A stretch of 64,000 bases of DNA from Protoeuglena noctilucae (GCA_958009085.1 OY253681.1:62001-126000); one strand, 5' to 3'. Positions 488-43,659 are shown, numbered from the stretch's first letter. Made by a program: numbers and translations. The notes: generated by a model from the letters alone, not told the origin.

Positions 488-3400
488 ATGGAGCAGTCAA
501 TCAAAGACCAGGTCGAGTCGCTGGTGAGTTTTCGGCTTAGGGGAGGAAGGAATTCGCGAGCGCACACGAGTGCCGTGGGTACGCGTCTCGCACGCGACGC
601 CTGTTGACCGGGAGTCTAAGACGCCCTCGCGAAAACATTTATGTTGATACACACATCCCATTCAGTGCTAGTATCTTTCACATCACTCCGTCACTCGACC
701 CGGGACCTGCTTACGCGATGTCGCTCGCCTCTCCCAGCGGAAGCGGACGCCCCCCGCCGCCCGCGCAGGACCGCGTGCTCACGCGCCTGGCCGTGACGTC
801 GGATGATGCGCTGGAGACGGTGGTCGGCCGGCTGCTCCCGCTCCTGCTGCCGCAGCTGGCGGTCGAGGCCCCGCCCGTCCGCAACAAGGTGCGACCGCGA
901 AAGAGAGAATCGAATGGAACAGTTCTCTCTGTTGTATCAATACCAATATTGTGACACATCTCGCGCGACCATTTTTGTTCCCCGCAGATCATGGAGATCC
1001 TGGCCCACGCCAACAAGCGCATCAAGAGCCGCCCCTCCATGCCCCTTCCCCTGCGCGCCCTCGCCGACCTCTACGCCCGCCACGCCCCGGGGGACTCCTC
1101 GAGCGCCGAGTGCCACCCCATGGTGCGCAACTTCGCTCTGATTTACCTGGAGATGGCCATGGAGAGGGCGAATGCCGAGGAGCGACTGGACGTGCTGCCC
1201 ACCGTCGTCAGGGTGAGTGAGGGACGAAAGGGGCTGGGTGGATAGAAGAGTGGAGTGATAATAGAGGAAGCATGACGTGGCAAAGTGGAGCGTGGGAACT
1301 GCTCGAGATCATCCCCTTGTGTTCCTGACCGTACCCACACCTCTCACCTCCACTTTACAGTAACCCCGCACCCCCACAGCTCATCCCCCGCCTGTCTCGC
1401 AGAACGTGTCTTGCGCGTCGTCTCAGCAGCGCGACCTGGCCCTGCGCCTGGCCATGCGGGCGCTGCAGGGACTGGCGGGGGCGTCAGCGCACCCCGACGA
1501 GCGATTGCAAGAGCGGTTCGGCCTTCGCTTGGCTAATACCGATATTGGGATCACTGGCTCGTGCTGGCTGCCCACGCATGCGCCTGCCCGTGACCTGCGC
1601 GCGCTGTTGGCGCGGGGGCGCGTGCTGCTGCTGTACCAGCCACCCTCGATTGACACCGCCGCTGTTGCTGCCGAGGAGCGTGGGAGTGCGCAAGATGCGG
1701 CGCCGGTGTCGATTGGCCCGTCGGCGTCTGCGGGGGATGTGGCCAGGGCGGTGCGGGTGGCGAGGGAGGTTATGCGGGCGCTGGAGGAGGCAGCGCCACG
1801 TGAGTGTGTAGGGGTGGGGTGTGGGGTTGCACTGGAGATGTGTTGATAGCATTTCCTTTAATGCTCATATCATGGGATTGTTTGTATTGCTGCCTTGGTT
1901 GCCTGCCGCACCCCCGCACTCGCACCCATCACCCACCTGCCCCTCCCCCCCAGGCACTACCAACTGGCCCCCCCCCGGCCTGTCTTTGAATGAGGCCGAC
2001 GGACTGTTCAAGTCCCTACCGACCATCGCCGATGTTCGACTGATGAAGGAGGGACTGCTGGTTCTGACGGCCAGGCTGGATGTCCCCCTCGAGGAGTGCC
2101 TGGGCATGTACGTGACGGCGGCATGCGACCCGTGGGACAAGTGAGTGGATACATGTGGCAGATATGGAGATGTGCAAATACGATGAGCGTAGCGTGATGG
2201 CCATGTATGTGGCAGCCGCATGCGACCCGTGGGACAAGTGAGTGGATGTATGGAATGTGCCAATGATCCCTCAATACTCATGACCACACTCTCTCCCCCA
2301 TCACTGAGTGTCTTAGTGTTCAAACAACCTCTCACCCCTCCCCACCACCCCTCTCCCCTCTCTCCCTCACCCCCAGGGTGTCCCAGTGTGCCGACGACCT
2401 CCTCCGCAAGCGATGTGCATTGACCAGCCCCCGCCCCACCGTCGACCTCGACAGCCCCGCCGCCATTCAGAGCCTCTACCGACTGGTGCTGGGCAGCCAC
2501 CCCCCCAGTTTGGCAGACATCGTGGGGGCGATGAAGGGGGAGGGGGAGCAGGGCACCCTAAGCCAGGGCGATAGAGATGCGGACGGTGACAGTCACATGG
2601 ATGGGACAGTTAATGTTAATGTCAATGTCAATGTCAACCAGTCGAGTGGGAATGGGGAGAGTGGTGGTGCGAGTGTGGTGGATAGGGATGCGGCTGGGCC
2701 GGCGGGGGCGGCTGTGGTGGCCAAGGCTCTGGGGGTGCTGTGCCGGAGCGTGGCGGCGGCGGACGCGTTTCCGCAAGCACTGCAGGTGAGGGGGAGGGGT
2801 TGGGGGTGGGGGTGAGTGGTGTGGCACTCGCTGCGGTGCTGCTTGTGAGGATGCGTGGCTGTGGAGAGCAGTATTATGATGAACAGAAGCAGCGCATGCA
2901 TGCGGTCTGGTTGCCGCTTGCCCACCTTGCTCCCTGTTCCCACGCAACTTCTCTCCCCCTCCCCCCAGGCTATATTGCTGAGTGCGTTCCTCCCCCACGC
3001 CAGCCCCCGCCTGCGTGAGTCGGGCATGTCCTTCACCATGTGGGTGATGCAGCACGCCAGCCACGACAGGCTCACGACAGGCGAGGGATGAGAAGGGGGG
3101 TGGTTGATGTGATGAAAGAGATGCGGGACAGGAACACGCCGCGCTATGTGTTGCGCCCTTGTTAGCGCCCCGTCTCCTTATCAACCCAGGTCTCTCTCTT
3201 ACCCATCCATCACCCATCTCACCATCCACTCTGACATATCTCACCCACCACCCCATCTCTCCCCACCACTCAGACATTTCCCAATCCATCCTCGACCTCC
3301 TGCTAGACACCCTCACAGTTACATCGCTGTTCACTCACTCACCACCCACTCACTCATTCACTCACTCCCCATCTCAGACATCTCCTCATCCATCCTCGAC

Positions 3401-6400
3401 CTCCTGCTAGACACCCTCACACCCACTCTGTCCATCTCACTCACTCAATCACCTCTCCCCCACTCACCCCAGACATCTCCTCATCCATCCTCGACCTCCT
3501 CTTAGACACCCTCGCCTCCCCCGCCACCCAAGGCACCGACGCGGCATCTGCCAATCTGCGCGCGTTCTGCTACGAGGGCATCGCGGCTGTGGCTAGGAGA
3601 AGACCCGAGGCAATGAGGAGCACAAAGCACGCGCAACACGTGCCACAGGCGAGAGGGAGGGGGAGGGGGAGACTGGGATAAGACATGTGGCTTTGTTAAA
3701 TGGAATTGTGATTGGCAAAGGGACTTTGCTTGCTCACGCTCCGTCATGCACGCTCGCGCTCTTACCACCCACCAACCCGCTCTCCCTCACCTCTCCCACC
3801 ACCCAATCCCTGTGTAACCACACCTCGTCTCTCACATCTTACCCCTCACCTCACCCCCCCTCTCCTCAGCTCCTCTTCGACCGCCTCTCCACCGAGCCCC
3901 CCGCCACCCGCGGCACCCTGCAAGCGTCCCTGTCCTCGCTCGCAAGCGCGTACGACCAATCGGGGTATCGACTGTCGCTGTATGGCACCATCGAGGGGGC
4001 TGCCCAGTCACCGGCGGAGGCGGCACGGGCGTGTGCGGTGGAGTGGGCCGTGAGGCTGTTTGAGTACCGGGATGCCAGGTGAGGGGAGTGGTTGGGTGTT
4101 TGGGGTGCATGCGATACATATGTTGAGATGGGCCGTGAGGCTGTCGGGATTAGGCTGTTGTAATAACAGCCTAATATCATTATGACTACGACTCTTAGTC
4201 TTATGACTCATAGTCTTATGACTATGACTACGACTTACGACTCTCATTCCCACCGGCACTTGCTCCTCCCTCCCCCCACCTGCAGGGCGCGTGCGGTTTG
4301 CGTGATGGCTGTCAGTGACAAGCGCCCCGCAGTGCAGGAGGCGGCCAGGAGGGGACTGGACCCATCGCAGTTCCACAAAACAGGCGAAGGCGAGAGAGAA
4401 CGATTGTGTATATGTTACATATATATCCAATTATGTCACGTACAGTCAGCTAAGCTGGCCCATCAGACACCCACTCACTCCCACACACCTCACCCACTTC
4501 CCCCCCATCTCAGACAGTACCACCCATCCACCCACCCACCCCCCCCTCCCTCCCCTCAGGCCCCGCCACCCCCCCCACCGCTGCTGACCTCCTCCACTGC
4601 ATGGCATCACACGCCCCATCCCTGTCCAGAGACCCAGACCCCTCATCCGACCCCGCACTGCCACCCGAGTCGATGCAAGCGATGGTGTCTCTGATGCTGG
4701 CAGCACACACCGCCAGACCATCTAAAGCATCTACAGATGCAGTGGCGAGGGTGCTGCGACATGCAGCGGCGCCACGGTCGCCCTCGTCGGTGCTCGCCAC
4801 TGCCATGCATGCGCTCGTGGCGCTGATGCTGCCGAAAGAGGTGGCAGAGGCGACGACGGGTGCTGAGGGAGTGGGGGTGGGGATGATGGCAGCAGGGGGG
4901 GCGACCGTTAAGCAGGCAGTTGGGGTAGGGTCAGCAGGGGCAACAGCAGACGCAATGACAGCTGAGCAAGCAGCGGGGATGACTGGGTCAGTGTCAGTGT
5001 CAGCGATAGCGACAGTGTCGACATGTGATGCCTCAGCATTGGGGGTGGCGCGTGAGTGGGCATCGCGAGCCCCCCGTCTGCTGGAGGCGGGGGCGGCGGC
5101 GACGGACCCCGCGGTGCGGCTGCGGGTGGCGAGGGCGGCGGGGGTGGCGCTGGCAATCGCGGGGGATGGGGCGGGGGCGGAGGCGGCGGCGGCGTGGGCC
5201 AAAGCGCGTGCCATGTGTCCGGCACCTGACAACAACAACGCAGCAGAGGGGATGAAGAAGAGTGCTTTTGATTTCCAAACGGTGGACTTTGCGATGCTGG
5301 CCGGGGCTTACCTGGCCGCTGCGTGTGCGGTGCTGGGGGGAGAGGCGATGGCGGGGGTGGCGAGGGCGGCAGCGGGGGCGACGGTGGAGGCAGGTGAGGG
5401 TTTGTGCGTGTGTGGAGGGGTGTTGTATTGGTAGTAACGGTGTAATGGCAGGTTATCGATGTTGTCTGGGACATGTGAGATTGATGTCGGCGTGTGCGAG
5501 AGTGGGCTGGGTTCGTGCGTGTTGTGTGCACTGGTTGGTCGACATGAACGCAATACAGTGCGAGTGCAAGTAAGGTTAACTTGTCAATCATCACTCCCAG
5601 TCCCTTCCTTATCTATCCCCGCAGCCCTGTCCGCGCTTTCTCACCCCCGCCACGCCCAGCACCGCCGCTCGGCCCTCTCGGCCATATCTGCGGTGGCGGG
5701 GGCGGGGATGCTTTTGAATGACGAGGTGGCGAGGGTGGCGACTGCGCTCAGTCAGCTGGTGCAGGACAGGGAGGGGGAGACGCGGGCCAGGGTGGCGCGG
5801 TGCCTGGGGATGGTGTGCATGGGGGATGCGGGTGAGGGAGAGGGACGAGGGGTGATGGTTGTGATGTGAGTGGGTGTGAGTGGGGATGGTGTGCATGGGG
5901 GATGCGGGTGAGAGGGAGATGAGGGTAGTGGGGGCGGTGGGCGATAAGAGTGGGTGTGATTCTACCAGTCGCACTCCGTTACTAACCAAACCCTCACCTG
6001 TCCATGTGTGTGTGTGCCCCACCATCAACAACAGCCCCCCCCCCCCCATCTCCAGATGCGGCCATGCGTCCCCTCGCCCCCGACAGCCGCCCATTGCTCC
6101 ACTTAGCCTGCGACTGCGCACGTGGCACGTCCGATGAAACAGTGCGGCTGGCAGCGGGGCAGGCCATGTGCCTCGCATTTGGGTGTCCCGCCGTCACCCC
6201 CCGCCATCTGCTGGCCGTGGATGAAGTGAGGATCGACCGGTGGGGGGGCGTGGAGAGGGTGTGGGAGGGGATCGGCAACGGTGAGAATGGGGGAGGGGGT
6301 GAGGGAGGGTGCGGGTGGCAGTGTAGGTGTAAGTGTGGGATTGCTTACTGCTGACCAGCAATGCTGCATGGCAGAGACTCATATAGTTAGCGACTGAGCA

Positions 6401-9400
6401 TCGTGACAAACACCGCGCTTGTCGTTGTGTTGTTGCACGTAACAACAACCACCCCCACCCCTCCCCTCACCCCCCCCAGGCACCCCACCCCCCTCTGTTA
6501 CCCCCACCCCATCCGACCCCCGCACCTCATCCCAATCCTGGGTGCTCTCCCTGCTCCTGCAAGAGCTGCCCAACAGCGCGTCGTCCGCCGACCGCGAGTG
6601 CGGCTGCGCGTGGCTGCATGCGCTGGTGCGCGCGTGTGGCCCCTGGTCCCGTCGATTGCGTGACTGTCTGGTGGAGGTGCAGGAGGTGCTGGGGCTGCTG
6701 GTGGGGGAACCCAGCGACGTGGCGAGCGAGGCGGCCAGCCGAGCCATGTCCATGGTGAGGGAGATGTGTATATGTATATGTATATGAATAGATGTGTTTA
6801 TCGATATGATGTGCATGCTGACATGTCAGTGGTGATGGATGCGAGTGGGATTGAGATTGCCACCACCATCATCCGATCCCATCCAATGTCACAAGATAGC
6901 ACTGGACGCTATCACGTGTCTCTTCCCATCACCATCACACACTCCCCTCCTTCTCCCCCTCAGGTGTATGCGCTGGGTGACGGTGAGGTGCGGTCTCGCC
7001 TGGTGTCGGGGCTGGCGGATGTGCTGAGCGGGAAGGCGCGGCAGAGGGTGGCCAAGGTGGACGCGGACAGCGCAGTCATGCCGGAGGGGGAGGTGAGGGG
7101 GGTGAGAGAGGGAGTGGTGTGAGAGTGTGTGACAAGAAAGGGAGGTGAGGGAGGAATGGGGGAGGTGAAGGGTGGTGAGGGAGTGGTGTGAGAACAGAGC
7201 GATGTGAGAGCAGTGGGGAGAGTGGTGTATAGAAAGAGGGGTTGAGGGAGGTAGCGCTGCCCCTCTCACTGCCATTCACCCACCCACCCATTCACTTCCC
7301 CATCACCATCCCTCAGCCCCCCCAGGTCAGCCGCGGTGGCCAGGGCCTCACCACCTACCGCGAGCTGTGCAACATGGCCAACGACATGGGGAAGCCGGAG
7401 CTGGTGTACAAGTGAGGGAGGGGCATGTGCATGGGGTTGGTGGGGGTGACGAGGGGGTGTGACGAGGTGTGGCAGATGGTCAGCCACTACCAACACAGCA
7501 ACTGCATGAATATTGACATCAACCCCACTCTCCCCCTCCCCCACAGATTCATGGAGATCGTCAACCACTATCGCGGCTTGGCAGCCGCGCGGTCGACGGC
7601 GGCCGGCCTTGGGTCGGTGATGCGGGCGGCGGGGGAGGAGCTGAGGCCGCACGTGGAGAAGATGCTGCCCAAGCTGTACAGGTGACGGTCACTGTCAATT
7701 TGTTAGTTACTCGCTCGCTACTTCCCTCCCCCCTCACTCCCTCACTCCCTCAACACCCCCTCCCCCCCCCTTCCCCGCCATTCAATCAACACCTTTAATC
7801 CACACCCAGGCACGAGTTTGACCCCTCCCCCTCCCTCCCTCACTCACTCACAGCCACTCTCACTCACTCACCCCCTCGCTCAGTCATTCACACTCACTCA
7901 CTCACTCACTCACTCTCTCCCTCATCTCAGGCACCAGTTTGACCCCTCCCCCGGCGTGCAAGAGGCCATGCGGGGCATCATGACAACTCTATTAGACGAC
8001 CCCAAGAAGGCCATATCGCAGCGATTGCCAGATATCGCATCCGATCTGCTGACTGAGATTGGGGGCCGCACGTGGCGGGGCAGGGAGAGCGTGTGCCTGG
8101 CGCTGGCGGACCTGGTGCAGGGGAGGAGGTGGCAGGCGAGGGGGGGATGGGGTGGGGTTGTATGTTATTGATGGAATTGTGTGTAATTGAATGTGTGTGA
8201 GAGGTAACGATGCTAGAGTGCTCTCGATGATGGCAATGGCTGGCTTGGTGCAGGGCAGGAGGTGGCAGGTGAGATGAGGAGAGATGGGAGCTGTGTTTGT
8301 AACAATGTAACAAGTAACAACGAGCAGTCACCACTCTCGCTCATTCCCAATCACAGCATGCCGTACCCCACGTATCATCAATCCCCACTCACCCTCCCGC
8401 ACCCCCCACTTACTCACCCATTCACCCCACACATTTTTAATCTCCCGTCACTCTATTGCGGTTCTACCGCAATATCAACCCCCTCCCCCCCCAACCCCCT
8501 CCCCAATCTCTCCTCCCCCTTCAGGACGTCTCCCCCTTCCTCACCGACGCCTGGCTGATGGCGGGTCGAGCCATGGACGACGTGAAAGACAGCGTGCGCG
8601 TGGCTGGCCTCACATTGCACAGTGCGCTGACGTCGCTGTCGGTGCGGCTGGCCACGCCGGGGACGACGGGGGATGACAAGGCGGTGGAGCAGGTTAGAAA
8701 GGGGGCGGTTATAATGATTATAATTGTCATTACTAGTGACGGGTGTGACTGGCTGGGAGCATCAGGGGACGAGGGGGCGGTGGTGCAGGCGAGGGGTGGG
8801 GTGATGGGGGTGGAAGTGGTGGTGGTCGAGTAGCGCAGTGCAGCGTCTGTGTTCGTCACAGGTGCTACCAACCACTCTCAACCTCCCTCTCCCTCTGCTG
8901 TCGTGCCTCATTGATGCATCCCTCTCCCACCCACTACCATCACTCACTCACTCACTCACTCACTCCCCCTCTCTCATCCCCCCCAGTCATCCTCCGTCCT
9001 GTCATGCCTCCTCGACGCCTCTCTCCGCCCCGGCTGCGGCCTCGCGTCCTCTGCTGCTGAGGTCCGCGTGGCGTGCGTGATGACGATGGCGCGACTGCTG
9101 AGCGTGTGCGGGGCGCAGGCAGCAAGGCAGCACCTCAGCCAGGCGAGCAGGGCGCTAGTGCAGTTGCATGGCAGTTACTTTTTGTGTCACAAATAACTCA
9201 CTGCACGTGGTTGCGACGCCTACGTCACTGCATCTCAGCCAGTCGAACATTGACTGCCATCGTATCATTGCCCATCCACCATTGCACACCCACATCCACC
9301 CCCCCCCCCCCCCCCCTTCTCCCCATGTGGTCCATCGTACATCTCTCACATACACACACCCTATCTTTATCCTTATCCTTATCCCATTCCCACCACTCAG

Positions 9401-12400
9401 GTGGTCCCCTCTCTGCTGGATGCCCTGTCAGGGATGGAGGACCCAAGGCTCAGTTACCTGGAGATGCAGGCCACGCACCTGGGGGCAAAGACGGCGGGGG
9501 CCATTGATGCCGCGAGGGGTGAGGGAGGAAGGGGGGGTGATGGTTCGTTGGGGTGGGGGTACTGGGGGGGATGGGTACGGAGTGTAAGTGACACAAACGG
9601 TGGGGGTTGCAGTGATGATGTGATTGATATTCAATAGTTGCTTACACTCTCTTCATCTGATAACACCACCCCTGTCACACCCCACGCTGCCCCCATCGCA
9701 CCTGTCATGTCCCCACACCCCTTACGACGCCCCCTAATTAGTCGGGAAACTTTCTCGAAATTTGTGTTATAACCCCAATGCATTCGTGTCATCTCTTTTA
9801 CCATCGCATGCAAAGTGCCGTGGGTTCTCAGGGTATAAAATGTAGGGTTCTGAAAAAGTGATTACCCCCTAATTTATGACACCCCCTTAAACGAACCCCC
9901 CACCCCCCCCCCCTCCCCCCCCAGTGCGCGCCGCCCAGAGCACTCCCATGGCAGAGGCACTGGACCTATGCGCTAGATACGCAGACCGCGACTGTCTGGA
10001 TGCATTGGTGCCGAAGCTGACATCGACCATGCGCAAGGGGGTGGGGCTGAACACGAGGGTGGGGGCGGCCAGGTTCGTGCAAGCATTGGCTGCCAGGCAG
10101 GGGGCGGATCTGGCTCACAAGTGCGGGCATCTGATGAAGGGGGCGGTGGAGGCTGCGAGGGGGGCGGGGGGGAACGCGGCGGTGCGGACGGCGATGGCGG
10201 CGACGGTGGCGGCGGTGGCCAAGCACGCCAAGGCGGAGGTGAGAGATGAGAGGGTGGGGGTGGAATTAGAGTGGACGGATGTATATTGAATAGCTGTAGA
10301 GTACAGTAGTGTAGTAGCCAACCAACCACGCCGCACACGCTCCCTCCACCCCACCCAAACCCACACCCTCTCCAACCCCACTCACCCCCGCCCCTCTTTC
10401 CCCCCCCCAGCGTCTCTCCAAATTTGCCGACGACCTCCTTCAATCGTGGGAGGACCCCACAAACACCGACGCCCGCGTCACCAGCGCCCTGGTGTCACGT
10501 GCACTGGCGCGATCGGCCCCTGACGCCTTCGCCAGAATCGCGTCTGCCCTGGCGCCCGCTGCGTTTGTGGGTCGATTCGACGGCGATGCCCTCGCTGCCA
10601 GGCTCAGCGGGGAGGCGTGGGAGGAGGGGACCGGGGGGGGGTCAGGGGCCGTGCGGTGAGGGGGGGGGGGGAGTGGGTGGGTGGGTGTGTGGTGGGGGTG
10701 GGGGAGTGGTGGTGGGGTGGGTGCATGGGTAGTATGGACAGGTAGAGAAGGGTCGGGGGCCGTGCGGTCAGGGGGTGGTGTTGGGTGGTGGGGGAGTGCA
10801 TGGGGTGGTGCTTGCATGGGGTGGAGGGAGTGTGCATGTTCACAGGCAGTGTGACAACGCATCGCATTGCACCGCCATTTACAGCTCAGTCACTCCCACC
10901 CCCCATCTTCCCCCCCCCCAGTGCCTATCTCCCCGAGATCGTCGCCATCGCCTGTTCCCGCATGCACAGCCAGGCACGCGACTGGCGACTGTCAGCCATG
11001 CGGGCAATCAAAGCAGTGGCAGAGGAAGCGCCGAGAGTGGTGGGGGCAAACAGGGCGGCAACAATGCGCATGGCAAGGGCGGTGGAGGGAGGTGAGGGGG
11101 GGGGGGGGGGATGGTCGCAGGAGGGGTGGAAGAGGTATGAGTGGCGCTACTGTTGCGATCTCTCATTTAGCACCTGCCATGCCACCCACTGTCCCACGTC
11201 GCACGTCTCACATCTCACGTCTCATCTCACCCCCTCCCCATCTCCCCAGACCTCTCCTCCGGCATCACATGGGACGGCAAGGAGGAGGGATTCCACGCAC
11301 TGGCGGCCCTGTGCGCGGCAGCAGCGGCCACGGACCCAGCAGCGCTGATGGAAGAAACCCTCACAAACGACGACAATAAGCATGTTGATGGTGGCAATGC
11401 GAGTGGCAACGCAAGTGGCGATGTGGAGATGGCAGATGGGGCTGATGCAGGGGCGGGTGCGGGTGGCAGTGCGGGTGGTGGTGCATCCACAGCCACACTT
11501 GCAATTGCGGATGATGACAGGGCATCGCTGGCGGTGCGTGCGGTGCGCGCGTGCGTGGCGGGGAGCCGCAAGCGCCGCCGGGCGTTCCGAGCAGCGGCGC
11601 TGTCTGCCTTGGCGCGCGTGATGGGGTCGGTGCGGGAGGGGGGGGAGCGGGCGGCGGGGGCGGCGGGGGAGGGGACGAGGGCGGCATTGCGCGAGTGTGC
11701 GGAGGGGCTGGTGGAGGGGACACTGCGGCCGGCGATGGCGGCGGTGGGGGCGGAGGAGGGCAGTGGTGGCGGTGGGGGTGGCGGTGGCAATGCGGGTGGT
11801 GCGGGTGGTGGCAGCACTGGTGGTGGCGGCACTGAGGGTGCAGCTGCGGATGAGGGTGGGCATGCGCCTCTGGCTGAGGGACTGGAGGTGAGGGAGTGGG
11901 TGGGGTCATGTATGAACAACACAGCGCAACGCCGTCACTTTTGCTATTGCTATAACAACCTTTCTGTAACAACCACGTGCACAGCTGCTCAGCCACTACA
12001 ACACTGCTCACCCTCACCACCCTCACTTCTCCCCCCCAGGCCTTCCGCTCCCTCCTCCTCACTGACCCCGTCATCCTCCACCAATGGTCCCCCTCTCGCG
12101 ACGCCACGCGCGACCTCTTCACATGCACCGCTGTGCTGGTCAGAGAGGGGCGGGCGGCGAGGGCGGCGGGGCTGCAGTGCTGCGCGGCGGCGATGGGGCG
12201 GGGGGGGGAGGGGATGGGTGAGATGGGATGTGGGGTGGGGAGTGGGGCACAGAGGGCTTTGAGGTGTTTGTGAGATGGGGTGGGGAGTGGTTTACAGAGT
12301 GGGGCTCAGAGGGGTGCTTGTGTGATGAGAACATGCGATGATGGGTTGCCACGTGCCATGATGTTTGGTCAGGCTTTTACGGCTGCAGCCCTGGTACCCC

Positions 12401-12965
12401 GCATGCCATCGCATGTGCTTTGTTCTTATTACACCACCCCTGCCACTGCATGCCTGCCTTACACCTCCGCCCCCGTAAATGCAGACGCGGACAGCTTGCG
12501 TGGTCTGCTGTGCGGGGGACTGTGGGCCGCGGTGGGCGACGTGGGGAGCGCGGCGGTGCGGCAGGCGGCGGTGGAGCTGGTGGGGGCGTGCGTGGGGGCG
12601 TGCGGGGGGGCGACCGTGGCGGCGGCGATGGGGGGGGAGGGCGGGCAGCGGCTGAGGTGAGGGGGTGGGTGTGGCTGCGACTGAGGGTGGCTGGTGAGAT
12701 GGGAAGCCACTCTGCATCCCAGCACCAACAAGTGCCGTGTCGTGCATCGCTACCCATCGCTCACCGCACGCTCGTCGCATCACCACCCCCTCGCTCTCTC
12801 TATATGCTCACCCGCCCCTCCGTTGACCTTGCCTTTCCTCCCAGGGATGCCCTGGCTCTGTCGGCTGCGTCGGAGCGGGTCCCTTCCATCCGCGCCAAGG
12901 CAAAGGAAGCAGCAGACGCGGTGGGGGGAGCGGGGGTGGCGGTAATGGAGACTGGAAGAGGCTAG
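488..12965 (+). CDS. ECM29: Proteasome adaptor/scaffold ECM29 (HEAT-repeat), multi-exon
   Basis: Hand-spliced N-terminus MEQSIKDQVESL|DRVLTRLAVTSDDALE...VRNK|IMEILAHANKRIK, then MVRNFALIYLEMA, LTTYRELCNMANDMGKPELVY, KMLPKLYR, WRGRESVCLALADLVQGR, RAMDDVKDSVR and GVGLNTRVG, all matching remembered ECM29 motifs. Exons are bounded by GT/GC-AG; stop is TAG at 12963-12965. Confidence 0.92.
7843..7915 (+). repeat. (CACT)n microsatellite-like tract in an ECM29 intron; similar tracts near 3335-3370 and 8940-8965
   Basis: Direct reading of cactcactcact runs upstream of acceptors. Confidence 0.8.
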
Positions 12966-13849
12966 ATGAGATGGGCACGACGGATTCGGTTGTAAAACGT
13001 TTCCTTTAACTTCCCCACCAAAAGATTTTGGGGTTTTTACTGGGGTTTTGGATGCGGCTTGCGTTCAACGGTTTTGGGTCGACGGTTAGGGTATCTTCCC
13101 ATCCCAAGGACCCATCATCTCATCGTCAGCGGCTCTGCAGCCACTCAGACTCGAGTCCGCGACGCCAAGTTGTATGGTTGCCAGGCCTCAGGCTCTGACC
13201 GCTGCGTGCAAGGACTCTGGAACCGTTGGGAGGCTGCCAACAAAGATTCCGGCTGCTTCTGTCCCACTGTGCGACGAACGTGAAATTGTGCAGCATATGG
13301 AGTTTGGAAACTTGCCTCGTCAATGCGTAATTCTTGAAGAGTGGGCAGAGAGCTTTGTGGAGTACGCCAGGCGCAATGAAGCGGCCGCAGTGTTTGCACT
13401 GTTCAGTGCACGGAGGCATTGTGATTCCTGCGTATGGAGCAGTGATCAGTGAAAAATTGTGACGGATAGGGAAGTTTGACCAAAACTGCGCGCTAGTGCG
13501 TCGCAAAAGAGGCGAGCAAGCTGGTCTTTACTTTGCGACTGAGGTCATGCAAGGTCCCAAAAGCCAGAAGATTGCACGAAAAGTCCACTGCTGCACAAGC
13601 CCCGTCGATTAAACCAGAATAACGCGGCGAACTCACCTCGGTCTTAACAATTGTCCGCGGACGAGCTGATATACACAAGCAGTGGTGGTCGAAGCTCTTT
13701 TTAACAATTTCATGGGCAACACGGCGTTCTGGCCAGTCAGACTCCATGAGTCTGATTCTGAATCAGCATCGGGCCGCAGCATAAGATTGAGGGCTGAGGC
13801 GTGGAGTAAGTATGAGGGTTTGATGCCAGGGCATGTGCTCGCCTGACCG

Positions 13850-14450
13850 CACCACGCCTGCCTGCCTCCACCCCCACAGCTTGCGTGGTCTGCTGTGCGG
13901 GGGACTGTGGGCCGCGGTGGGCGACGCGGGGAGCGCGGCGGTGCGGCAGGCGGCGGTGGAGCTGGTGGGGGCGTGCGTGGGGGCGTGCGGGGGGGCGACC
14001 GTGGCGGCGGCGATGGGGGGGGAGGGCGGGCAGCGGCTGAGGTTAGGGGGTGGCTGTGGTTGCGACTGAGGTGAGGGGGTAACTGTGGCTGAGGTGAGGG
14101 GTGGGGCAGGTGGGCTGCAATACTGTGTCCTGGCATCCCCAAGGTGTCATTCAACACTACCAATCGCTCACCGGACGCTTGTCACATCACCCTCGCTCCC
14201 TGTGTATGCTCACCCACCCCTCCGTTGACCTTGCCTTTCCTCCCAGGGATGCCCTGGCTCTGTCGGCTGCGTCGGAGCAGGTCCCTTCCATCCGCGCCAA
14301 GGCAAAGGAAGTGGCAGACGCGGTGGGGGCAGCCTTGACGAGTGCCATGGAGACTGAAGGGAGCTAGATGAGAGGGGCAAGCGTGTGGACGGTGGGGGGA
14401 GCGGGGGTGGTGGTGATGGAGACTGGGGGAGGGTAGATGAGATGGGCAAG
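13850..14450 (+). repeat. Duplicated copy of the last two ECM29 exons with flanking intron sequence
   Basis: 13877-14042 is near-identical to about 12491-12657 (SLRGLLCGGLWAAVGD...GQRLR). 14160-14370 matches about 12755-12970 (RDALALSAASE.VPSIRAKAKE). A third partial copy lies at about 14385-14450. Confidence 0.95.
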
Positions 14451-14899
14451 CATGTGTATTACATGGAGGGGGTGGGGATGGCTGCCATGCCATGGAGACC
14501 GGGGGAGGCATTGTGCTAGATGAGCATGACTGCCGCGCGCGTTTCAACGCTCGCATGATGCGCAACAAGAGGGACGCACTTGCGCCAACAAAGCACTGCA
14601 TATGACATGACTTGCAATGGCCGGCTGCTGCTTGCAAACCCGCTCCCGCTCCCTCCTCCCTCCCGCGCCGCACTCGTCGCCCGGCCACTGCCCCACGCCT
14701 GTCCGCTGCATGCCCACCAAGACCAACACTCTCATGTAAAGAGCGCTGCATGACACCACACAATCCCCTTATGCCTCGATCGCACCGCTGCCGGTCATGA
14801 GTCGGACGCGGTGGATCCCCAACAGTGTCAAGTCCCACGGCATTGAGGCCCAGGCCGTGGGCTGAGAGCGGAGCGGGCGGTGAGTCCTCTGCAGGCGAG

Positions 14900-16380
14900 G
14901 CACGCATGAGCGAGTGTGAGCAGCATAAGCATCCATGCTCTGTGTCGTCATGAAGGTGCACCTGCTTTGCCAATCAAGCCTGCCCTCACCTGTTTCTCCC
15001 TCTGTTAGGCCAGCCGCATTGGCCGCCAACTCCTGCACCCCCCCGTCCTCTCCAAACATCGCACCCACGAACGCCGCACCCATCGCCTCCAGCCCCACGC
15101 TGCTTGCTTGCACTCTTTCAACCCCGTGCACGCCCCCGCCCCCTGCACCCCCACCATGTCGCTCCAAGGAACAGCCGCGTCCGCTTCCCACGCTGCCGAT
15201 GCCCCGTGCATCACCTCCGCCATCGCCACCACCCACGTCACTGCCGAGCACTGCCATGGCGCCCCACCCGCCATGCCCCCCGCGTCCGCCCTCTGAGACC
15301 GGCCCCGGGTCATCGCCCCCGACAGCCTCGTCAGCAAGGCGTCGTGAAGCGCAGCGAGGTCTTCTGACCCCATCGCACTTGCCGGTGACGCAAGGCGGGA
15401 CGGCGATGCCTTGGGGAGCGCCACGCCCCTTGCCTGGCCAAAAGGCGGGCTGCCAGAGCCCTTGCCCTGCCCAGGCACCGCAGCACGTTTGCAGGGCCGC
15501 GTAGGACGACTTGGTGTGCAGGTAGAGGAGCCCAGGGGGCGTGCGGGGCAGGTGGGGGGCGGCGGCGGTGGCAGGCGTTGCTGCATCGACCCCTTCAGTG
15601 CGAGGTCGATCCCCGGCGTGGTCGGGTCACAGGGTGGCCCAGGTGCCCGGGTCGGGGGTCGAGTGGAGCAGGAGGGCGGCGGTGCTGGCGTCAAAGACCT
15701 GTGCGAGGCGTAGGAGCGCGACGGATCCAGTTACGCCATGTTAAGACAACCCAAAAGCAAAGTCAGCCAATCAGTGTCTCCGACCATTCAATGTGAAACG
15801 CCTCGCTGACGCGGCGGGCCCCGGCGACCCGCGTGGCCGCCGCTATTCTCCCGCAGAGCTTCTCGACGGCGTCGACAGATCCAGACGCCGCCTTTGGCAT
15901 CGCCTCCCACATCTCCATCATCCCGCACAGCACCGGCCACGGCACCGCCTGCCCCGACACCCCACCCCACGCCACCGCCCCTCCCTTGGCGCCCACCACG
16001 GGAGCCTCGGGTACAGGCGCATCGCTGGAACGGGGCCATCCACCCCTAGGCTTCCTGTCGGAGTGGCCCAGAGCTGAGTCGCCCACGCCCCATCCCCGCT
16101 CAGCATTGTCAGCGTCACCATCCCCGGCCCCCAAGAGCTCCCTCGCCATGTCCTCATATGCGCCATAAGCACCCAACGCCTCGTCACTCCCCCTCTCTGC
16201 GATGGGCGTACCGTACTCCCCGTCCATATCCACCTCGATCTCCGCATCTGCCGGGTCCTTGCTGGGTGCCTGGCCGTCACCGTGGCCCTCGATTACGGGC
16301 TCGGTCCCCGCCAACAGCTTTCACATCAAAGTCGAGCCCCGGGAAGAGGCCGTCGTCTGCCAGGACCTCTGCATGTTAGG
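14900..16380 (-). pseudogene. Unidentified, apparently disrupted coding remnant
   Basis: Coding-like stretches (ORF 15763-16314 and segments such as LLRLAQVFDASTAALLL and LLYLHTKSSYAALQ) are separated by an in-frame TGA and frame changes. No family recognised. Confidence 0.3.
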
Positions 16381-16902
16381 CGGGGCAGTGTTGGATGCTT
16401 GATACTATTGCCTCCCTGGCGGTCAGTCAGTCCATGTCGACCACTCAGCCTCTGATCAACGAGTCAGGCAGAAGAAGGGCAGCAGCGTCGTCACACCATC
16501 ATCACACTCTGTCTTACCCGCGACCTCCCGCCCCTCCACTCGTTGTCCCCGTCGCCAGCATTTGCGGGTCAACACCGCTGCAAGGGGGCATCGCAGGTCT
16601 TGTGTGCGCTTCATGGCTTCTTGGGTGCACGATTGCCGACTGTCACGGCGCATCGTGCATACTGGACGGCGCGGGAGGTACGCACGGTGCCATCAGAGCC
16701 GTCCGCAGGGCGCAAGCTTGGACGGTTCCCACAACCATGCTCTCGTGCGCTTGCGGCCTGTCACGTCATCGTTCGCGGTCGCAGCTGTGCGCTTTCTGTG
16801 GCATTCGCGTTCAAAGAGCCATTCCAAAGCGTCACTTTCCCCTGGACGTCCCTGCTCAATTGACGAGACCGAGCGCATGCCGGCCACCCACAGCAGCCTT
16901 GC

Positions 16903-26777: not shown

Positions 26778-28467
26778 TCAACCCCCCACGACCCCCGTGA
26801 TCCTCCACCTCCAGTAGTCAGCCCATTCAAACACATTGCGAGGCGAGCCATCCACACGCGTGACGCACGGGCCGCCCCCTGGGAGCGCCCATGACTCGCC
26901 CACAGCCAGGCGAGGTGCCAGGGCCATCTCGGCGCCACTCGACGACGCGGCAGGATCCCCTCCCTCCACGGCGCGCCCCACCCACCCCGCGACCACCGCG
27001 TTGACCACGTCCGGCGCCTCGTGGTGGGGGCTGCGAGCGGCACGGAGGAGTCAGCCTCGTGGGAGGCAGTGAGGCACTTGGGGCGTCGCGGCGTGCAGAC
27101 GCGTCCACCTCGGCAGCACAAGCGCCTCACCAGTGTCCCCCGGTCTCTTGCAGAGGCATCCATTGCAGCAGCACAAGCGCCTCACCAGTGTCCCGCGGGT
27201 GCGATCTCCCAGTACTCGAACGCCCTGCTCTGGCCCCGCAGCGCGCGGCTGGCCCGCTGGCCCCACAGGGGCACCACCCAGGGGTCGTCGCGGCCGTAGA
27301 GGAGGAGGGCGGGGGCGGTCACGGACGCGAGGGCCTCGTGGAATGGCCGGGAGGGGCGGGGGCTGAAGGCGATGGAGGCGAAGGCGTCGAGCGCGGCGGG
27401 GTGGAGGGTCGGGCGGAGGATGCCCGCCGTGAGGACGGGGCACGCGGCGGCAGAGGCGTCCACGTACACCAGCCGCAGCATGGCCGACACGGTCTGCGGA
27501 GGCGGCGGGGTAGCCAGGGCGCGTGGCACATTGTTCACTGGATGACCTGTTCGCGGGTTTGGGTCGCGGAAGTGATGTAGCTGCTGCCAGCGACACCCAC
27601 CTCTGGCCGGCGCAGCTGGTCCCACCAGAGACGCTGAATGACGGCCTTAAGCGGGCCCGGCGCAGGCACGGCGCCGTCCCAGAGCCACGAGGCCCGGGGC
27701 GCCGCGTCGGCCTCTGCCTCCGCGTCGGTCTTTGCCTTTTCGGGGGGCAGGAATCCCCAGAAGGGCGTGGCGTTGAGCAGCACGAGGCCCCTGCACACCT
27801 CCGGGTGCGCGCTGGCGAGGTGGGTGGCCAGGAAACCGCCCAGGGAGTTCCCGACCAGGACGACGGGCTCGCCGACGACGTGGAGCACGAAGTCACGCAG
27901 CATCCTGACCCAGGTGTCTGCGCTGTACCTGAGGCGCTCGCCGTCGTCCACCGCGCCCTCGCTGCCGTACTCCGCCGGCCAGCTGCGGCCCTGGCCGAGG
28001 ATGTCAAGCGCAAAGACGCGGTGGGTGGCAGAGAGCGCCTCCACCTGCCGAGAGAAGTGGAACCAGCCGACGCCGAAGCCCGGAACCAGGAGCAGCGGGA
28101 CACCGCGGTCACCCCTCCTGGGATCACGGAAAGGCTGCTAGGCTGGTAAAGAGAGGACACCTGGCGTGTCCTGCGCGCAGCAGCGCTCCTCGATCGTGGC
28201 ACACCTGACGAAGTGGATTCGCGAGCCCCACCGCCAGTCCCAGTACTCCCCCTCCTCGTCTATCGTGTACGTTACCGCCCGCTCGACTGGCGCGGCGCTG
28301 GAGGCCCTCGCCAGCACGCGACGACCCGATACGCGGCGCGCATCGCGTGCACCGAGGCATACTGGTGCTGGCAGCACTGGGACCACCGCCGACCGCGATG
28401 AGGTGGTCGCTGGCTCGCCCCCCCGTCCGGCTACGCTAGGCCGGGCGCGCAAGGCAATGGTTGTCAT
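26778..28467 (-). CDS. PPH: Pheophytinase-like alpha/beta hydrolase with putative plastid transit peptide
   Basis: Ala/Ser/Arg-rich N-terminus, LLLVPGFGVGWFHF, GNSLGG nucleophile elbow, LLNATPFWG (PPH-type motif), GRDDPWV, AGH|CPHHEAP. Confidence 0.8.
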
Positions 28468-34377: not shown

Positions 34378-37300
34378 TCACCTCCCCTTCTCCTCCCCAG
34401 TCGCCTCGTCGCCCTTCTCCTGACCCATCTCTTGCTCCCCCTCCTCCTCCCCAGACTTGCTCCCCCTCCCCCCCGTCCCCTCCAGCCCCTCCAAGTCCTC
34501 CTCATCCCCCTGCTCCTCCCCCTTCGCGCCGCTCCGCGCCTGCAGCCGCGTCATGCAGCCCCTCACCGCCGCCTGCACCGCCACCGCCGCGTGGTGGTGC
34601 GCCACCGAGTACTTGGGCGGCTTCGTGGGGTCGTGGCCCACCGTGCGCTTCAGCTTGCGCCAGAACCGCGCCTCCTCCTTGTGGTTCGACGCCACCAGCG
34701 CCTGCACCTCGTCCCGCAGCTGCAGAGATGAGGCGACAGGGGTCACGCGAAAGGGACGCTGAACATGAGAGAGGGTCGTGAACAAACATGATAAATGCGT
34801 CGCAGCTAAGGTGTACAAGTTACATCGGGGTATCACATGTCATGTCATGTCTTCCACCCACGCCCCGTGCTACCGGACCCCCCCCCCCCCAACATCACTG
34901 CTCGCCTGTGGCATGGCGTCGAGGGCGGCCTTGTGCGCCAGGGCGTAGAGGACTTCGTGGAAGGTCACCAGGCCATCGCGGTCGGGGATGTCGCAGCGGA
35001 GGAGGAACTGGGTGAGGGCCGAGAGCGACGCCTGCTGCCCGCCCATGCCCAGGGGGGGCGGCAGGTCATCGACGATGAAGGGCAGGCGGGGGGCAGGCAC
35101 GCGGCCTGTGCCGTCCGGGTCGTGCTTGCTCCACACCTCCCTGCGGGGATGAGATAGGAGCGGTGCGATGAGAGTTGAGTGGGGATTGAGATATGATCGA
35201 TGCATGGCTCGCGGCGCGCGTGGGACACGTAGGGGCATGCAGTGGCAGTGTGCAGTGCGAGGCGTGGCTCACCGGAAGAGCTGTATGTCCTCTTTGCGGA
35301 CAGCAAACGTCTCATCCTCGGAGGAATTCATGTAGTTGTCCAGAATGACGGCAATGATCATGTTGACCTGTGGGCGAAGGGTGAAGGGGGAGAGGCCGGT
35401 GGCAAGAGAGAGGTTATCGGCAAGAAAGAGACGCCTGAGTGATCAAGGCTGCCTCCGTCGCCTTTCTGTGATCGCCGCCGTCCGTCTCAGTACATGGATG
35501 CCTACCACTCTGTGTGCCTGCCACTCTATACATGCCGCCGCCGCCACGCATGCAACCCCCCCACCCCCGCGCAAGCAGCGCCACTCGCCATGAGGTACGA
35601 GATGAAGATGACGTAGGAGAAGAAGTAGAGGATGGAGTAGGCCGCGCCGATGGAGCACTGGTTGCGGTAGTCCACCCCGGCAGTCAGGCCGTACGTGTGC
35701 ACGTTGGGCTGCGACCCGTGTGGCCCGTTGACCCAGTCCCCGCTCCGCAGCCCCGCGGACGGCACGTCCCGCAGCATGAGCGCGCACGAGTCCACCACCA
35801 GCGTGTCGCGCATCACTTCCGTCCACGTCTCGCCCGTCGCAATCTGCAGCACCACGCCCATCGACCCCAGGAAACTGCCGAAGTTCTCGTGCCTGCGGGT
35901 GAGGAGGGAGGCAAGGGGCGCTACAGCTTGCAGGCTCAGGGCTAAGAGGAACGGCTCCCTGTGTCAGTTAAGTGACAGCAGCACTCGAGTGCTTGAGAGG
36001 GAGGCCAGGGCACGGGCCAGGCCTGCGCAGAGGCCAGGTCACCCCACGCGCGCCCTCGCTTGCACCAAGCTCGCGCCCTCACCTGTTCAGCGCGGTGCCG
36101 AAGCGGATGTTGCCGAACAGCTGCATCCCGACCACGGCGTAGATGAAGCTGAACAGCAGGAAGATGGCCCCGACGTTCCACAGCGCGGGCAGCGACGTCA
36201 GGAGGGTCTGCAGGAGCAGCCGCAGCCCCCGGGCGCGGGGCACGAGTCGGAAGATGCGTGCGACACGGAACACACGCACCAGCGCCACGACACCGAGCCC
36301 ACCCCGGGCGCTGGCGGTGGGCGCGGGCGCGAGGCCGATGCCGACGACGCTGGCGGCCGCGACGGCAAAGTCGAAGACGTGCCATGGATCGCGGAAGTAC
36401 CCCGTGGGCCCCAGGGCGGTGAGCTTGGCGGCGGCCTCGAAGCAGTAGCAGGCGGTGAAGGCGACGTTGGAGTAGAAGGAGAAGCGCTGCCATGGAGGGG
36501 ACATGTCGTAGTGATCCATGGCCATGGCGGCGATGTTGGCGACGACCACCGCCACCACCGCAGACTCGAACGCCGGGGCGGTGACGAGGTCGTAGCACGC
36601 GCGGCGGATGGGGCTGCGCTCGGGGCGCGGGGAGCGCCGCAGGGTGCCGGTAAGGATGGCCATGCGTCGTAGGTTGATCCACCGCTGCTGGTTCTCTGTC
36701 AGGAAGAGCGACCGCCCCTCGTTGCGTCGCTTCATCTGGCTGAAGCGGTCGACGAGGATGCCGACGAAGAGGCGGAGGAGGAAGAAGTTGGAGAGGAGCA
36801 TGAAGGCCACAAAGAAGGCCGAGGCGGCGCGGCGGGCGCCGCGGACGGGGGGCCGCGGCTGGCCGGTCGCCGGGTCGGGGCTCCGGGAGTCGACGGCTCG
36901 GAACATGACGTCCGACCACCCCTGCGCCGAGCTGACTTCGAAGAGCGTGAGGAGCGCGGCGCCCGTGTCGTCGAAGTGCTCGGGGTAGCGCTCCCACCGC
37001 GTGCTGACGGAGTAGGGCGGCACGGTGGCGTTGATGGCCGAGTGGAACCACGTGGAGGTGGCGGTGAGGATGCCGCTGGCGCACTCGGCTTGCGTGAAGC
37101 ACTGCCCGCGGGGACGGAAGCGGTAGCAGGGGAGGTCGTCGCCCGTATCCACGTCCACGCACCGCCCGAAGGCGCCCCCGAAGAACTGCACTCCCATCAC
37201 CGCTGCCACTAGGAAGAAGAGGAAGCACACGAGCAGCACGTTGACGACGGCGGGGAGGGTGCCGACGATGGCGGACACGATGACGCGGAGCTGGGGCAGG

Positions 37301-40300: not shown

Positions 40301-41602
40301 GCCGCGGGCGCGAAGGTCGTGCCGCTGGCGGCGTGCCCCGTGCAGACGGTGTCCTCCCAAACCACCGTGTCGTCCGGCAGCTGCTCGGGGATGACGTAGC
40401 GCAGTGCGCCGTTGTCGTCGAGCACTGCCTCCTGGCACCTCTTGCGCAGTGCGCCGCCGAAGAGGTCGACGCCGACGATGCCGAACAGCACGAAGAGGAA
40501 GAGGCACAGCAGGACGACGTCCAGCAGCATGGGGAGCGACGCGATGATGGCGGTGATGAGCACGCGCATGCCCCGGATGCCCCGGATGGTGCGGAGGGGG
40601 CGGAAGACGCGCACGACGCGGACGGAGCTGAAGTTGGACCCCGAGTTGACCCAGGGGAGGAGCGGCACAACGCCCAGGACCACCACGGCGAAGTCGAGAA
40701 CGTTCCACCCGTCCCTGGTTGGGGTGTGGGGGGAGTTGGGTGTGTGTGGGTTACCCTGACTGAGTTGAGGATTGGAGTGCGGTCAGGGTAGCGATTAAGA
40801 GAGTGGTTTAGAGTGGCTCACCGGATGTACGCCCCCGGTGCGCCCACGAAGCCCATCGCGACGACCTTGACCAGCATCTCGGCACTGCGGGGTCGGGGGC
40901 GTGTATGGGGCGATGTGGGTGTGTGGATGTATAGGCATGGGGTGTAAACAAGGGCGCGTGGCTGCTCACAGGAAGGCGAAGGTGAAGAAGAGCTCTGCGG
41001 TGGGCATGGCACGGCCGATGCGGGTGTCGGGGAAGCCCGGTGCGTTGGAGGACATGGCCAGGAAGATGGTATTAGCCAGAATGACGAGCTGGATGGCGAT
41101 GCCAAAGGCGCGGTGCTCCATGAGGCGGATGGCCGCCTGGCGCACGGGGTTGTTGAGGTCCAGGACGAAGCACGAACGCCACGGCCACACGCGGCGGCGC
41201 TCCCCGTTCTGGGCCGCACGCTCCTGGGTGCAAGGCGCGGCAGCGTGGGCGGTTCGGCAGGCCGAGCTGATGTCGTCGGCGACACGCGCAGGTGACAAGG
41301 GGCGCACGGGACTCACTCTTAGGGCCGTCAGGAAGGCGGCGAAGCGGGCATCGCGGATGCAGAAGCGCTCGTCGTCTGGGTCAGCGCCACTGAAGAGCGG
41401 GTCAGGGCGGGGCGGGGCCTGCGGAGGAAGCAACGCGGCTGGGGTTATCCGCGATGTAATCTCTCATCGCATGAAAGATCGCTCACGGCGCGGGGGACCG
41501 GGAGCTGTCGCGCCGGCGGCAGAATGCGCAGCTCACCTGAGCTCGCCGCTTGCAGTACGCGTCCAGCGTCTTGGCCGCGCCGGCACTCGGGGCCTGGTAC
41601 AT
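34378..41602 (-). CDS. Four-domain voltage-gated Ca2+/Na+ channel alpha subunit with C-terminal EF-hand-like and IQ motifs
   Basis: Four 6-TM repeats with Arg-rich S4 segments (VRVVRVFRPLRTI, LRAFRIFRVFKL, LRALRAARALRPMR, VRVFRVARIFRL). Pore loops TIEGW, AIYKW, SAQGW, TGETW. Also WSKHDPDGTGRVP and AVAVQAAVRG. Probable first exon MYQAPS...RAQ. Confidence 0.92.
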
Positions 41603-43339: not shown

Positions 43340-43659
43340 AGGGGGTGTGCTGCGGGGTAGTGGGACGTGCGGATTTTGAACTTGAAACTACTCGTGGCGG
43401 CCGCTAGGGAAGAAAGGGCGCATCATGTATGGCGTAGCTGGACGAGGTTGTTGACAACGACCCGGCCTGAGCAATTAAAGACGTACTTGTTACCAGAAAG
43501 CTTCATTCATGGACTTTTGAAATTCAGTTTTTGCATTCCATCGACCACTGTGAAGGGGGCAGGGGCGGTGCGTTACTGAGTCGAGTAAGTGTAAGCTAAA
43601 AAGTGGAACATGGGTGCAAGCACATGGAATTAAAAAGCTTTGTATACTTTACTAGCCCC

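Follow-up and report, generated by a model that had tools for sequence, protein, structure and literature searches.

Direct copies of exon-intron junctions inside the introns of an ECM29 gene of Protoeuglena noctilucae

The introns of the ECM29 gene of Protoeuglena noctilucae repeatedly contain diverged direct copies of the exon-intron junction next to them, here called echoes. Seven strong echoes and up to 13 events in total were found in this gene, none of them inverted, and in every case the extra copy is found intronward of the used site. The echoes are probably, though by no means certainly, relics of short local direct duplications, tandem or near-tandem, across exon-intron junctions, with inner copies in decay and an origin linked to strand skew. 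All tests were made within one 64-kb window, the whole stretch of 64,000 nucleotides analysed here (GCA_958009085.1 OY253681.1:62001-126000).

The ECM29 model reads through 2119 codons in open frame to the stop, and its identity is based on exon 988-1212, which matches Pfam ECM29_N. Metatranscriptome contigs support 11 of its 27 introns. A metagenome scan with exon 7932-8135 found no close relative and returned a single distant locus, a fungus-like, intronless ECM29 with 45% identity, which is collinear with the Protoeuglena protein across residues 1094-1567 and was used solely to check exon borders. The long exon 4562-5392 retrieved no homologues when used as a query, and no known RNA families were found in positions 1-30000. 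The echoes and related repeats are listed in the table.

Table. ECM29, junction echoes and related repeats in the window (positions counted from its first letter)
Feature	Coordinates	Strand	Identity or matching columns	Offset (nt)	Score	Remarks
ECM29 gene	488..12965	+				28 exons, 27 introns
Intron 5 donor echo	2101-2155 / 2198-2252	+	87%	97	27.5	Real GT 2141, echo GT 2238
Intron 7 acceptor, three copies	3257-3317 / 3361-3421 / 3456-3516	+	87% and 75% (copies 2 and 3 to copy 1)		35	Last copy is the real acceptor, AG ending 3472
Intron 9 donor echo	4038-4059 / 4122-4144	+	21/23	84	16	Junction part of copy degenerate
Intron 12 donor echo	5800-5842 / 5876-5918 (feature 5800..5955)	+	91%	76	27	RNA joint 5832, echo GT 5908
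Intron 15 donor echo	7086-7149 / 7158-7208	+		72		RNA joint 7093; only ~10 exon bases copied
Intron 17 acceptor echo	core 7807-7831 / 7928-7952 (feature 7724..7952)	+	96%		19.5	C-rich portion of unit likewise repeated, 7724-7762 / 7823-7859
Intron 18 donor echo	8098-8147 / 8231-8280 (feature 8098..8301)	+	80%	133	23	Real donor GC 8136, echo GT 8269
Intron 19 weak donor echo	8641-8712 / 8742-8805	+	46/72		11.5 (exon-only)	Echo donor 8789
Intron 19 weak acceptor echo	8872-8932 / 8968-9031	+	46/66		12.0
Intron 20 possible donor echo, weak	9130-9149 / 9230-9249	+	17/20		10.5 (rank 1/25)	Real donor GC 9143; echo without splice dinucleotide
Intron 23 donor echo, whole unit	10639-10740 / 10750-10856 (core 10639-10667 / 10750-10778)	+		111		Echo 5' site decayed to GTCAGG
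Intron 26 intron-head repeat beside donor	12231-12254 / 12276-12299 (feature 12218..12299)	+		45		No clear exon portion
Alpha/beta-hydrolase gene donor echo	27094-27143 / 27149-27198	-		55		Real GT 27185, echo GT 27130; ~12 exon bases copied
Last two ECM29 exons and their intron	12449-12977; copy at 13853-14379	+	81%			Copy lies 1.4 kb downstream
Stop-codon region of downstream partial ECM29 copy	14347-14387 / 14416-14456 / 14492-14524	+				Three repeats

The spacing between copies is 51-133 nt (median 96.5), with a narrow range of 72-133 nt within ECM29, and donors account for 10 of 14 events. A sequence-only reading of the stretch had listed ten pairs or groups in ECM29 and one pair in a second gene, there called PPH. 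The junction copies are real and seven of the ten are clear, whereas those at about 8670/8766 and 8897/8997 are weak and near the noise limit. The pair of the second gene, near 27113/27168, is real too, in a gene of which no more than its membership of the alpha/beta hydrolases was established. The echo of intron 15, the possible echo of intron 20 and the repeat of intron 26 are additions to that list. The stop-codon repeat was also absent from it, and other arrays away from junctions occur in the window at 44529 and 46209.

To score the echoes, the 40 exon bases adjoining each of the 54 ECM29 junctions were aligned to their own intron, and 1404 junction-versus-other-intron alignments served as controls (maximum 15.5, 99th percentile 12.0). 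Because the queries consist of exon bases only, shared splice signals add nothing to the scores. Own-intron scores of at least 16, above all controls, were obtained at 6 of the 54 junctions, scores of at least 14.5 at 7, and scores of at least 12.0 at 9, where about 0.5 would be expected; the intron 19 acceptor echo stands exactly at the 99th percentile. Reverse-complement exon queries gave no inverted echoes (0/54), and with all copies direct the earlier claim of local duplication holds. In an independent marine metagenome run (X5), single contigs bridge the pairs 2101/2198, 4038/4122, 7086/7158 and 8098/8231 as well as the weak pair 8641/8742, without differences. Since both copies lie inside single independent contigs, mis-assembly of the four pairs is excluded. 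The X5 contigs break off in repeats around 3313-3471, 5834-6041 and 7754-7928, so that independent bridging is confined to the pairs named above.

The extent of copying differs between introns. Head-to-tail whole units are evident in introns 7, 15 and 23. In intron 7 the units measure about 95-104 nt (TRF period 104, 2.5 copies) and align in 81 of 102 columns, and none of 74 controls equals the spacer similarity of intron 23, nor any of 127 that of intron 15. In introns 5, 12, 18 and 9 the spacers following the two cores resemble controls (fractions 0.10, 0.26, 0.69 and 0.85), and demonstrable copying is confined to a core of about 22-55 nt; these represent four of the six donor events tested. 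The exon-derived part of the echoes in introns 5, 12, 18 and 23 is 84-94% identical and the intron-derived part 51-66%. This exon-derived part is kept better than would be expected under simple neutral decay. Median length is 258 nt for the 11 echo introns and about 185 nt for the other 16 ECM29 introns, in agreement with the proposal that the copies lengthen introns. The echo introns span 207-392 nt with units of 45-133 nt, and most of their sequence is unrelated to exons.

The inner copies present look-alikes of splice sites, as had been suggested, and four echo donors score equal to the real ones. Use of the sites was assessed from RNA contigs, in which 15 joints are listed among 38 found and rare forms are lost. 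All five echo introns with a listed joint (12, 15, 18, 20 and 23) are spliced at the outer site, including the GC sites of introns 18 and 20; in intron 23 a loose RNA end connects 10655 to 10922. Introns 5, 7, 9, 17 and 19 have no RNA cover or no listed joint. For introns 15, 17, 18, 19 and 20, homology backs the outer site, with donor 8693 preferred in intron 19. At the introns with listed joints, splicing thus takes the original outer site and leaves the mRNA unchanged. No use of an echo site was seen among the 15 listed joints of 38, a sample that is compatible with low-level use. For 8 of 11 echo sites tested (position 12269 being disregarded), use would lead to an early stop. Echo donor 8789 is exempt, as it lies 96 nt downstream of the real donor, in frame and open. 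Echo donor 10767 is another exception, with a shift of 111 nt and a first stop at residue 1694, directly at the junction. The echo sites 9243, 10767 and 4145 have decayed. Predicted accessibility did not differ consistently between real and echo sites in the six introns examined, with one exception, and masking of echo donors by RNA structure was therefore dropped as an explanation.

The ECM29 introns are distinguished by G-rich heads and C-rich tails, with a G/C skew of +0.68 and -0.72, compared with +0.15 and -0.14 in 47 predicted introns elsewhere. The latter came from a crude predictor and are 60-230 nt long, all on the minus strand past position 16500, five with RNA support; longer introns and plus-strand predictions outside ECM29 were excluded because the predictor chains genes via false long introns. 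The distribution of echoes bears on one alternative, in which duplications arise evenly, exonic ones are purged and most survivors in a gene with short introns happen to span junctions, with neither hot spot nor function. Given an intron length of about 150-250 nt and a unit of about 100 nt, most exon-sparing duplications must cross a junction; for pre-duplication introns of about 150-200 nt, this holds for some two thirds of the tolerated positions or more. The use of the outer site fits such filtering, as do the stop-codon echo at 14347 and the arrays at 44529 and 46209, which sit outside junctions. However, 7 of 27 ECM29 introns hold strong echoes, compared with 0 of the 47 predicted introns of other genes (Fisher p=0.0005), and an annotation-blind scan detected no independent duplication wholly within ECM29 introns, microsatellites and low-complexity tracts aside. 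In none of the 14 events does the exon share of the unit exceed 0.51 (mean 0.31; for the difference from 0.5, p=0.0007), and the presence of echoes is tied to exon-edge skew, which is 0.44 at echo junctions and 0.22 at others (p=0.008), the former being more intron-like; both tests were devised after the data had been seen, with n of 12-14. Pure filtering is considered an unlikely explanation. The concentration in ECM29, the exon share and the skew point to a hot spot of sequence context. The earlier proposal of a junction-focused process is supported in part only: aiming at junctions as such is unsupported, and short-intron geometry and selection against exonic duplications account for much of the bias. 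The sharper question is why the G-head/C-tail introns of ECM29 gather such events and the short plain introns of its neighbours do not, a point of relevance to the influence of sequence context on the growth of introns.

A second alternative assigns the junction itself a role. A process linked to splicing or transcription, for instance break repair at R-loops or G-quadruplexes of G-rich donor regions, could copy about 40-55 nt of exon edge with the splice site into the intron, or the echo core could be maintained, either through gene conversion or because selection favours it as an enhancer or a decoy that binds U1. Core-only copying in four of six donor events, the far better preservation of the exon-derived part, the four echo donors of real strength (with an echo GT against a real GC in intron 18), the narrow spacing and the excess of donors over acceptors are all consistent with such an element. 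On the other hand, none of the listed joints uses an echo, three echo sites are decayed, accessibility shows no consistent difference, mutation and slippage may just be quicker in G-rich tracts, and the stop-codon echo is unrelated to splicing. The kindred repeat on the stop codon of the downstream partial copy indicates that this repeat type is not specific to splicing, and a directed or maintained element is judged improbable. In one version, likewise judged improbable, transcription- or structure-linked repair in G-head/C-tail introns would copy the exon edge of about 40-55 nt with its splice site about 100 nt into the intron, and the exon-like cores would then be kept alike by conversion or selection. 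If true, this would imply junction-centred intron growth, and possibly exon-edge evolution, specific to one intron class. Mis-assembly or chance similarity is very improbable: the intron ends are of low complexity, two of the previously listed pairs are at the noise limit and X5 short-read contigs break at three repeats, but the exon-only scores far exceed the 1404 controls, the bridged pairs, four and a weak one, are intact in independent DNA, and four sequencing runs of the organism itself contain 0.97-0.98 of the sampled words.

For the preferred reading of the echoes as duplication relics, the following course can be suggested. Each duplication would have covered one exon-intron junction and may have originated by replication slippage or misaligned break repair. 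Likely sites are the skewed tracts that straddle ECM29 junctions, presumably the G-rich exon end and intron head on the donor side and the C-rich intron tail and exon start on the acceptor side. Duplications that disrupted exons would have been purged by selection. The inner copies would represent pseudo-splice sites in decay, and their occasional use would mostly lead to premature stops and be cleared. Speaking against this course are the core-only copying in four of six donor events and the unexpectedly good preservation of the exon-derived part.

A comparable arrangement is described for intron 7 of human F7, where the first unit of a head-to-tail 37-bp minisatellite (VNTR) spans the exon 7/intron 7 boundary and only the most upstream donor is used (PMC1557585). 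As in that description, the ECM29 copies are direct and close, one of them holds the real junction, the repeat begins in the exon, and look-alike donors follow the real one, with the outermost site used at introns 12, 15, 18, 20 and 23 (15 of 38 joints listed). Whole head-to-tail units of the F7 type are seen in introns 7, 15 and 23, and only a core stands above controls in introns 5, 9, 12 and 18. F7 is a single locus whose 37-bp units are numerous and nearly identical, whereas ECM29 shows at least seven and up to 13 events, each of two or three diverged copies spaced by 51-133 nt, that also affect acceptors and in part comprise the core only. Boundary-spanning duplications are known at single loci such as F7, and the ECM29 echoes exemplify this known mutational outcome clearly but locally. 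If they occur genome-wide, they would offer many natural cases of two equal splice sites in competition, an arrangement that was constructed artificially in F7 for work on the choice of 5' splice sites, and would illustrate the part of short duplications in the lengthening of introns and the seeding of alternative sites.

One model of intron gain (PMC2891723) starts from an exonic AG|GT proto-splice site that is duplicated in tandem. It likewise has a short tandem duplication yield a second set of splice signals, with splicing hiding the duplication from the mRNA; its new intron, however, is one exon-derived duplicated unit, whereas the ECM29 copies occupy part of longer introns that have a G-rich head and a C-rich tail of their own. 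This indicates that duplication enlarged a pre-existing intron. Intron gain by unit duplication does not fit the echo introns, which are longer than their units and mostly non-exonic in sequence. Introner elements are transposon-derived intron families, and ECM29 resembles them as a single gene with a dense set of introns of common style. Unlike introners, its echoes copy the local exon and not a mobile consensus. An all-versus-all blastn of 25 ECM29 introns returned only C-rich or CTCA low-complexity matches of at most 53 nt, which argues against an introner family. The terminal inverted repeats and target-site duplications of introners also have no counterpart, as the echoes lie 51-133 nt from the original, inside the intron and not at its far end. 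The ability of the G-rich heads to pair with the C-rich tails reflects composition and no common terminal sequence.

In the green alga Chlamydomonas reinhardtii, tandem repeats are reported to be over-represented in introns (PMC9940879, PMC9977147). Protoeuglena noctilucae is likewise a GC-rich green alga with intronic tandem repeats, and the available portions of the two reports contain no mention of repeats that include a splice junction or exon sequence. In the collection searched with the protein of an ion-channel gene near ECM29, this green alga has no close sequenced relative; the top matches, from Pedinophyceae, Ulva and other green algae, are 44% identical and that of Micromonas is 34% identical.

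The existence of junction echoes, i.e. diverged second copies of an exon-intron junction inside that junction's own intron, was confirmed. Repeat search and pairwise alignments recovered seven of the ten pairs claimed for ECM29 by the sequence-only reading clearly and two weakly, and the pair reported in a second gene, a minus-strand alpha/beta hydrolase (27113 vs 27168), is real as well. To rule out likeness from common splice signals or low complexity, exon-only queries were used: the 40 exon bases beside each junction were aligned to their own intron and to all other ECM29 introns. The 1404 controls against other introns reached a maximum of 15.5 with a 99th percentile of 12.0, whereas scores of at least 16 were obtained against the own intron at 6 of 54 junctions (see table). 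Lowering the threshold to 14.5 added intron 23 (7/54), and nine of the 54 junctions scored at least 12.0. Inverted echoes were not found, as none of the 54 reverse-complement queries exceeded their own 99th percentile.

Junctions of ECM29 with an own-intron score of at least 16 for the exon-only query
Intron	Junction	Own-intron score
5	donor	27.5
7	acceptor	35
9	donor	16
12	donor	27
17	acceptor	19.5
18	donor	23

An annotation-blind scan compared each of 6366 40-nt windows with the 260 nt that follow it. It recovered the same events and added two pairs, 7086/7158 and 12231/12276, along with a small number of arrays in other places. Mis-assembly is contradicted by single contigs of an independent marine metagenome run that cover 2101/2198, 4038/4122, 7086/7158 and 8098/8231 with zero differences; the weak pair 8641/8742 likewise lies inside one independent metagenome contig with zero differences. 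The independent contigs stop at the repeats of introns 7, 12 and 17, as expected from a word-graph assembler, and these three pairs are thus left without independent bridging.

ECM29 is a plus-strand gene starting at ATG 488, and its exon 988-1212 matches Pfam ECM29_N (E=5.5e-17). The exon-intron model was built by dynamic programming and then corrected by hand; it contains 27 introns, and its reading frame stays open for 2119 codons. Metatranscriptome contigs support 11 of the 27 introns, ten by listed joints and one by a 14-nt loose end (10655 to 10922). Residues 1094-1567 of the model protein, a stretch that includes the junctions of introns 14-21, align collinearly with an ECM29 locus that is fungus-like and has no introns. 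Five introns (3081, 3649, 4390, 8136 and 9143) start with GC instead of GT, far more than the approximately 1% typical of eukaryotes; two of these, 8136 and 9143, are confirmed by RNA contigs as GC-AG introns. The window is GC-rich (57-74% per 2-kb windows) with spliced nuclear genes, and its sequence is present in the organism's own runs, marine metagenomes and metatranscriptomes.

The copies are direct and lie 45-133 nt apart (median 96.5 for 14 compiled unit lengths). Ten events occur at donors and four at acceptors; the additional copy invariably falls to the intron side of the junction, after the donor (downstream) or before the acceptor (upstream). Exon sequence makes up 0.06-0.51 of the unit, on average 0.31 (t-test vs 0.5, p=0.0007). 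The whole unit is repeated in introns 7, 15 and 23, with 81 of 102 columns identical and a TRF period of 104 in intron 7. In introns 5, 9, 12 and 18 the spacers after the first and the second core resemble each other no more than control intron heads do, and the demonstrable copy is the core only, approximately 22-55 nt comprising the exon edge and the first 10-25 intron bases. Among donor events, to which these figures apply (the intron 7 acceptor was left out), identity is 84-94% over exon-derived sequence (64% in intron 9) and 40-66% over intron-derived sequence with gaps counted.

Some echoes leave look-alikes of splice sites. Scored with a matrix built from the 27 ECM29 introns, four echo donors match the real ones (8.2 vs 8.2, 8.4 vs 9.0, 8.8 vs 8.6 and 8.6 vs 7.4); others have decayed. 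Intron 18 has GC at its real donor and GT at the echo. For 8 of 11 echo sites, use would introduce a premature stop; one of the other three was disregarded. The exceptions are donor 10767, where the first stop is met right at the junction (residue 1694), and echo donor 8789 of intron 19, which lies 96 nt past the outer (original) donor 8693, is in frame and open, and outscores the real donor. Its use could yield an ECM29 form 32 residues longer; homology to the intronless relative favours donor 8693 and the shorter form. At introns 12, 15, 18, 20 and 23 the RNA contigs are spliced at the outer site. Of 38 joints detected, 15 were listed, and splicing at an echo occurs in none of those 15, although contigs can miss rare forms. 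Predicted RNA accessibility did not separate real from echo donors.

The 27 ECM29 introns (488-12965) are a distinct class compared with the introns of 16500-64000, with G-rich heads and C-rich tails. The comparison set comprised 47 introns of other genes, 60-230 nt long, from our own predictor, five of them RNA-backed. Median length is 221 nt in ECM29 and 105 nt in this size-limited set; G/C skew is +0.68 vs +0.15 over the first 50 nt (p ~3e-8) and -0.72 vs -0.14 over the last 50 nt (p ~2e-10). Five RNA-backed introns of a neighbouring minus-strand gene, 83-161 nt in length, have no C-rich tract. In ECM29 the skew reaches the exon edges (+0.31 ahead of donors, -0.23 past acceptors). Beyond low-complexity tracts these introns share no common sequence, and therefore they do not form a recognisable introner family. 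Intron 21 (9339-10005) carries an AT-richer insert at about 9720-9900 without an Rfam match; its contig depth greatly exceeds that of its neighbours in one metatranscriptome (186.7) and in one metagenome (72.9 vs ~15), which suggests a multi-copy element.

The interpretation of the echoes as products of a junction-focused duplication process is partly supported. Pure filtering of duplications remains a rival, as by our own arithmetic most duplications that spare coding sequence must span a junction, because units are ~100 nt and pre-event introns were ~150-200 nt long. Besides this geometry, repeats away from junctions call for caution about a junction focus. The end of ECM29 (12449-12977), comprising its final two exons with the intron between them, has a second copy 1.4 kb further on (13853-14379, 81%), where the stop region is present three times at 69-76-nt spacing, a repeat of the same type as the junction echoes. 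Arrays at 44529, 46209 and 55231 are also unrelated to junctions. One stop-region sub-copy (14390-14448) matches the real stop region at 92% identity; RNA contigs of run X8 showed no depth across 14008-15341.

Filtering alone, however, does not explain the concentration in ECM29, the low exon share or the link to exon-edge skew. Nearly all events sit in ECM29: by the exon-only criterion, echoes occur in 7 of 27 ECM29 introns vs none of the 47 predicted introns elsewhere (Fisher p=0.0005), the hydrolase echo with its 12 exon bases falling below this criterion. In G/C skew, exon edges at echo junctions resemble the adjacent intron end more than those at other junctions do (0.44 vs 0.22; one-sided p=0.008 in a test designed post hoc on data already seen). 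A junction-directed or maintained element also remains a rival. The best-supported explanation, in which both the hot spot and the mutational step are inferred, has short local duplications forming preferentially in the skewed, repeat-prone tracts that straddle ECM29 junctions. The duplications would persist because the outer site leaves the mRNA intact, and inner copies would then decay, faster in slippage-prone G- or C-rich parts.

The nearest published parallel is a minisatellite in intron 7 of human F7: the exon-intron boundary lies within its first unit, and the look-alike donors downstream are silent (PMC1557585). The echoes differ from the model in which introns are gained by tandem duplication (PMC2891723), because there the entire intron consists of duplicated exon sequence. 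Chlamydomonas introns are reported to be enriched in tandem repeats (PMC9940879, PMC9977147), and a limited search of open-access literature found no description of many junction-spanning duplications in one gene. The ECM29 echoes, concentrated in one intron class, are thus an unusually dense new instance of an already known type of event.

The intron density of ECM29 contrasts with the neighbouring four-domain voltage-gated cation channel gene (Pfam Ion_trans; 34381-41463, minus strand), which has very long unbroken exons of 1081 and 483 codons and whose top protein matches, 44% identical, are from green algae. The region 42000-48000 has a lower GC content (50-57%), a 200-N assembly gap (42949-43148) and 39-nt and 69-nt tandem repeats; it does not resemble the surrounding genes and could be an insert of mobile or foreign origin.
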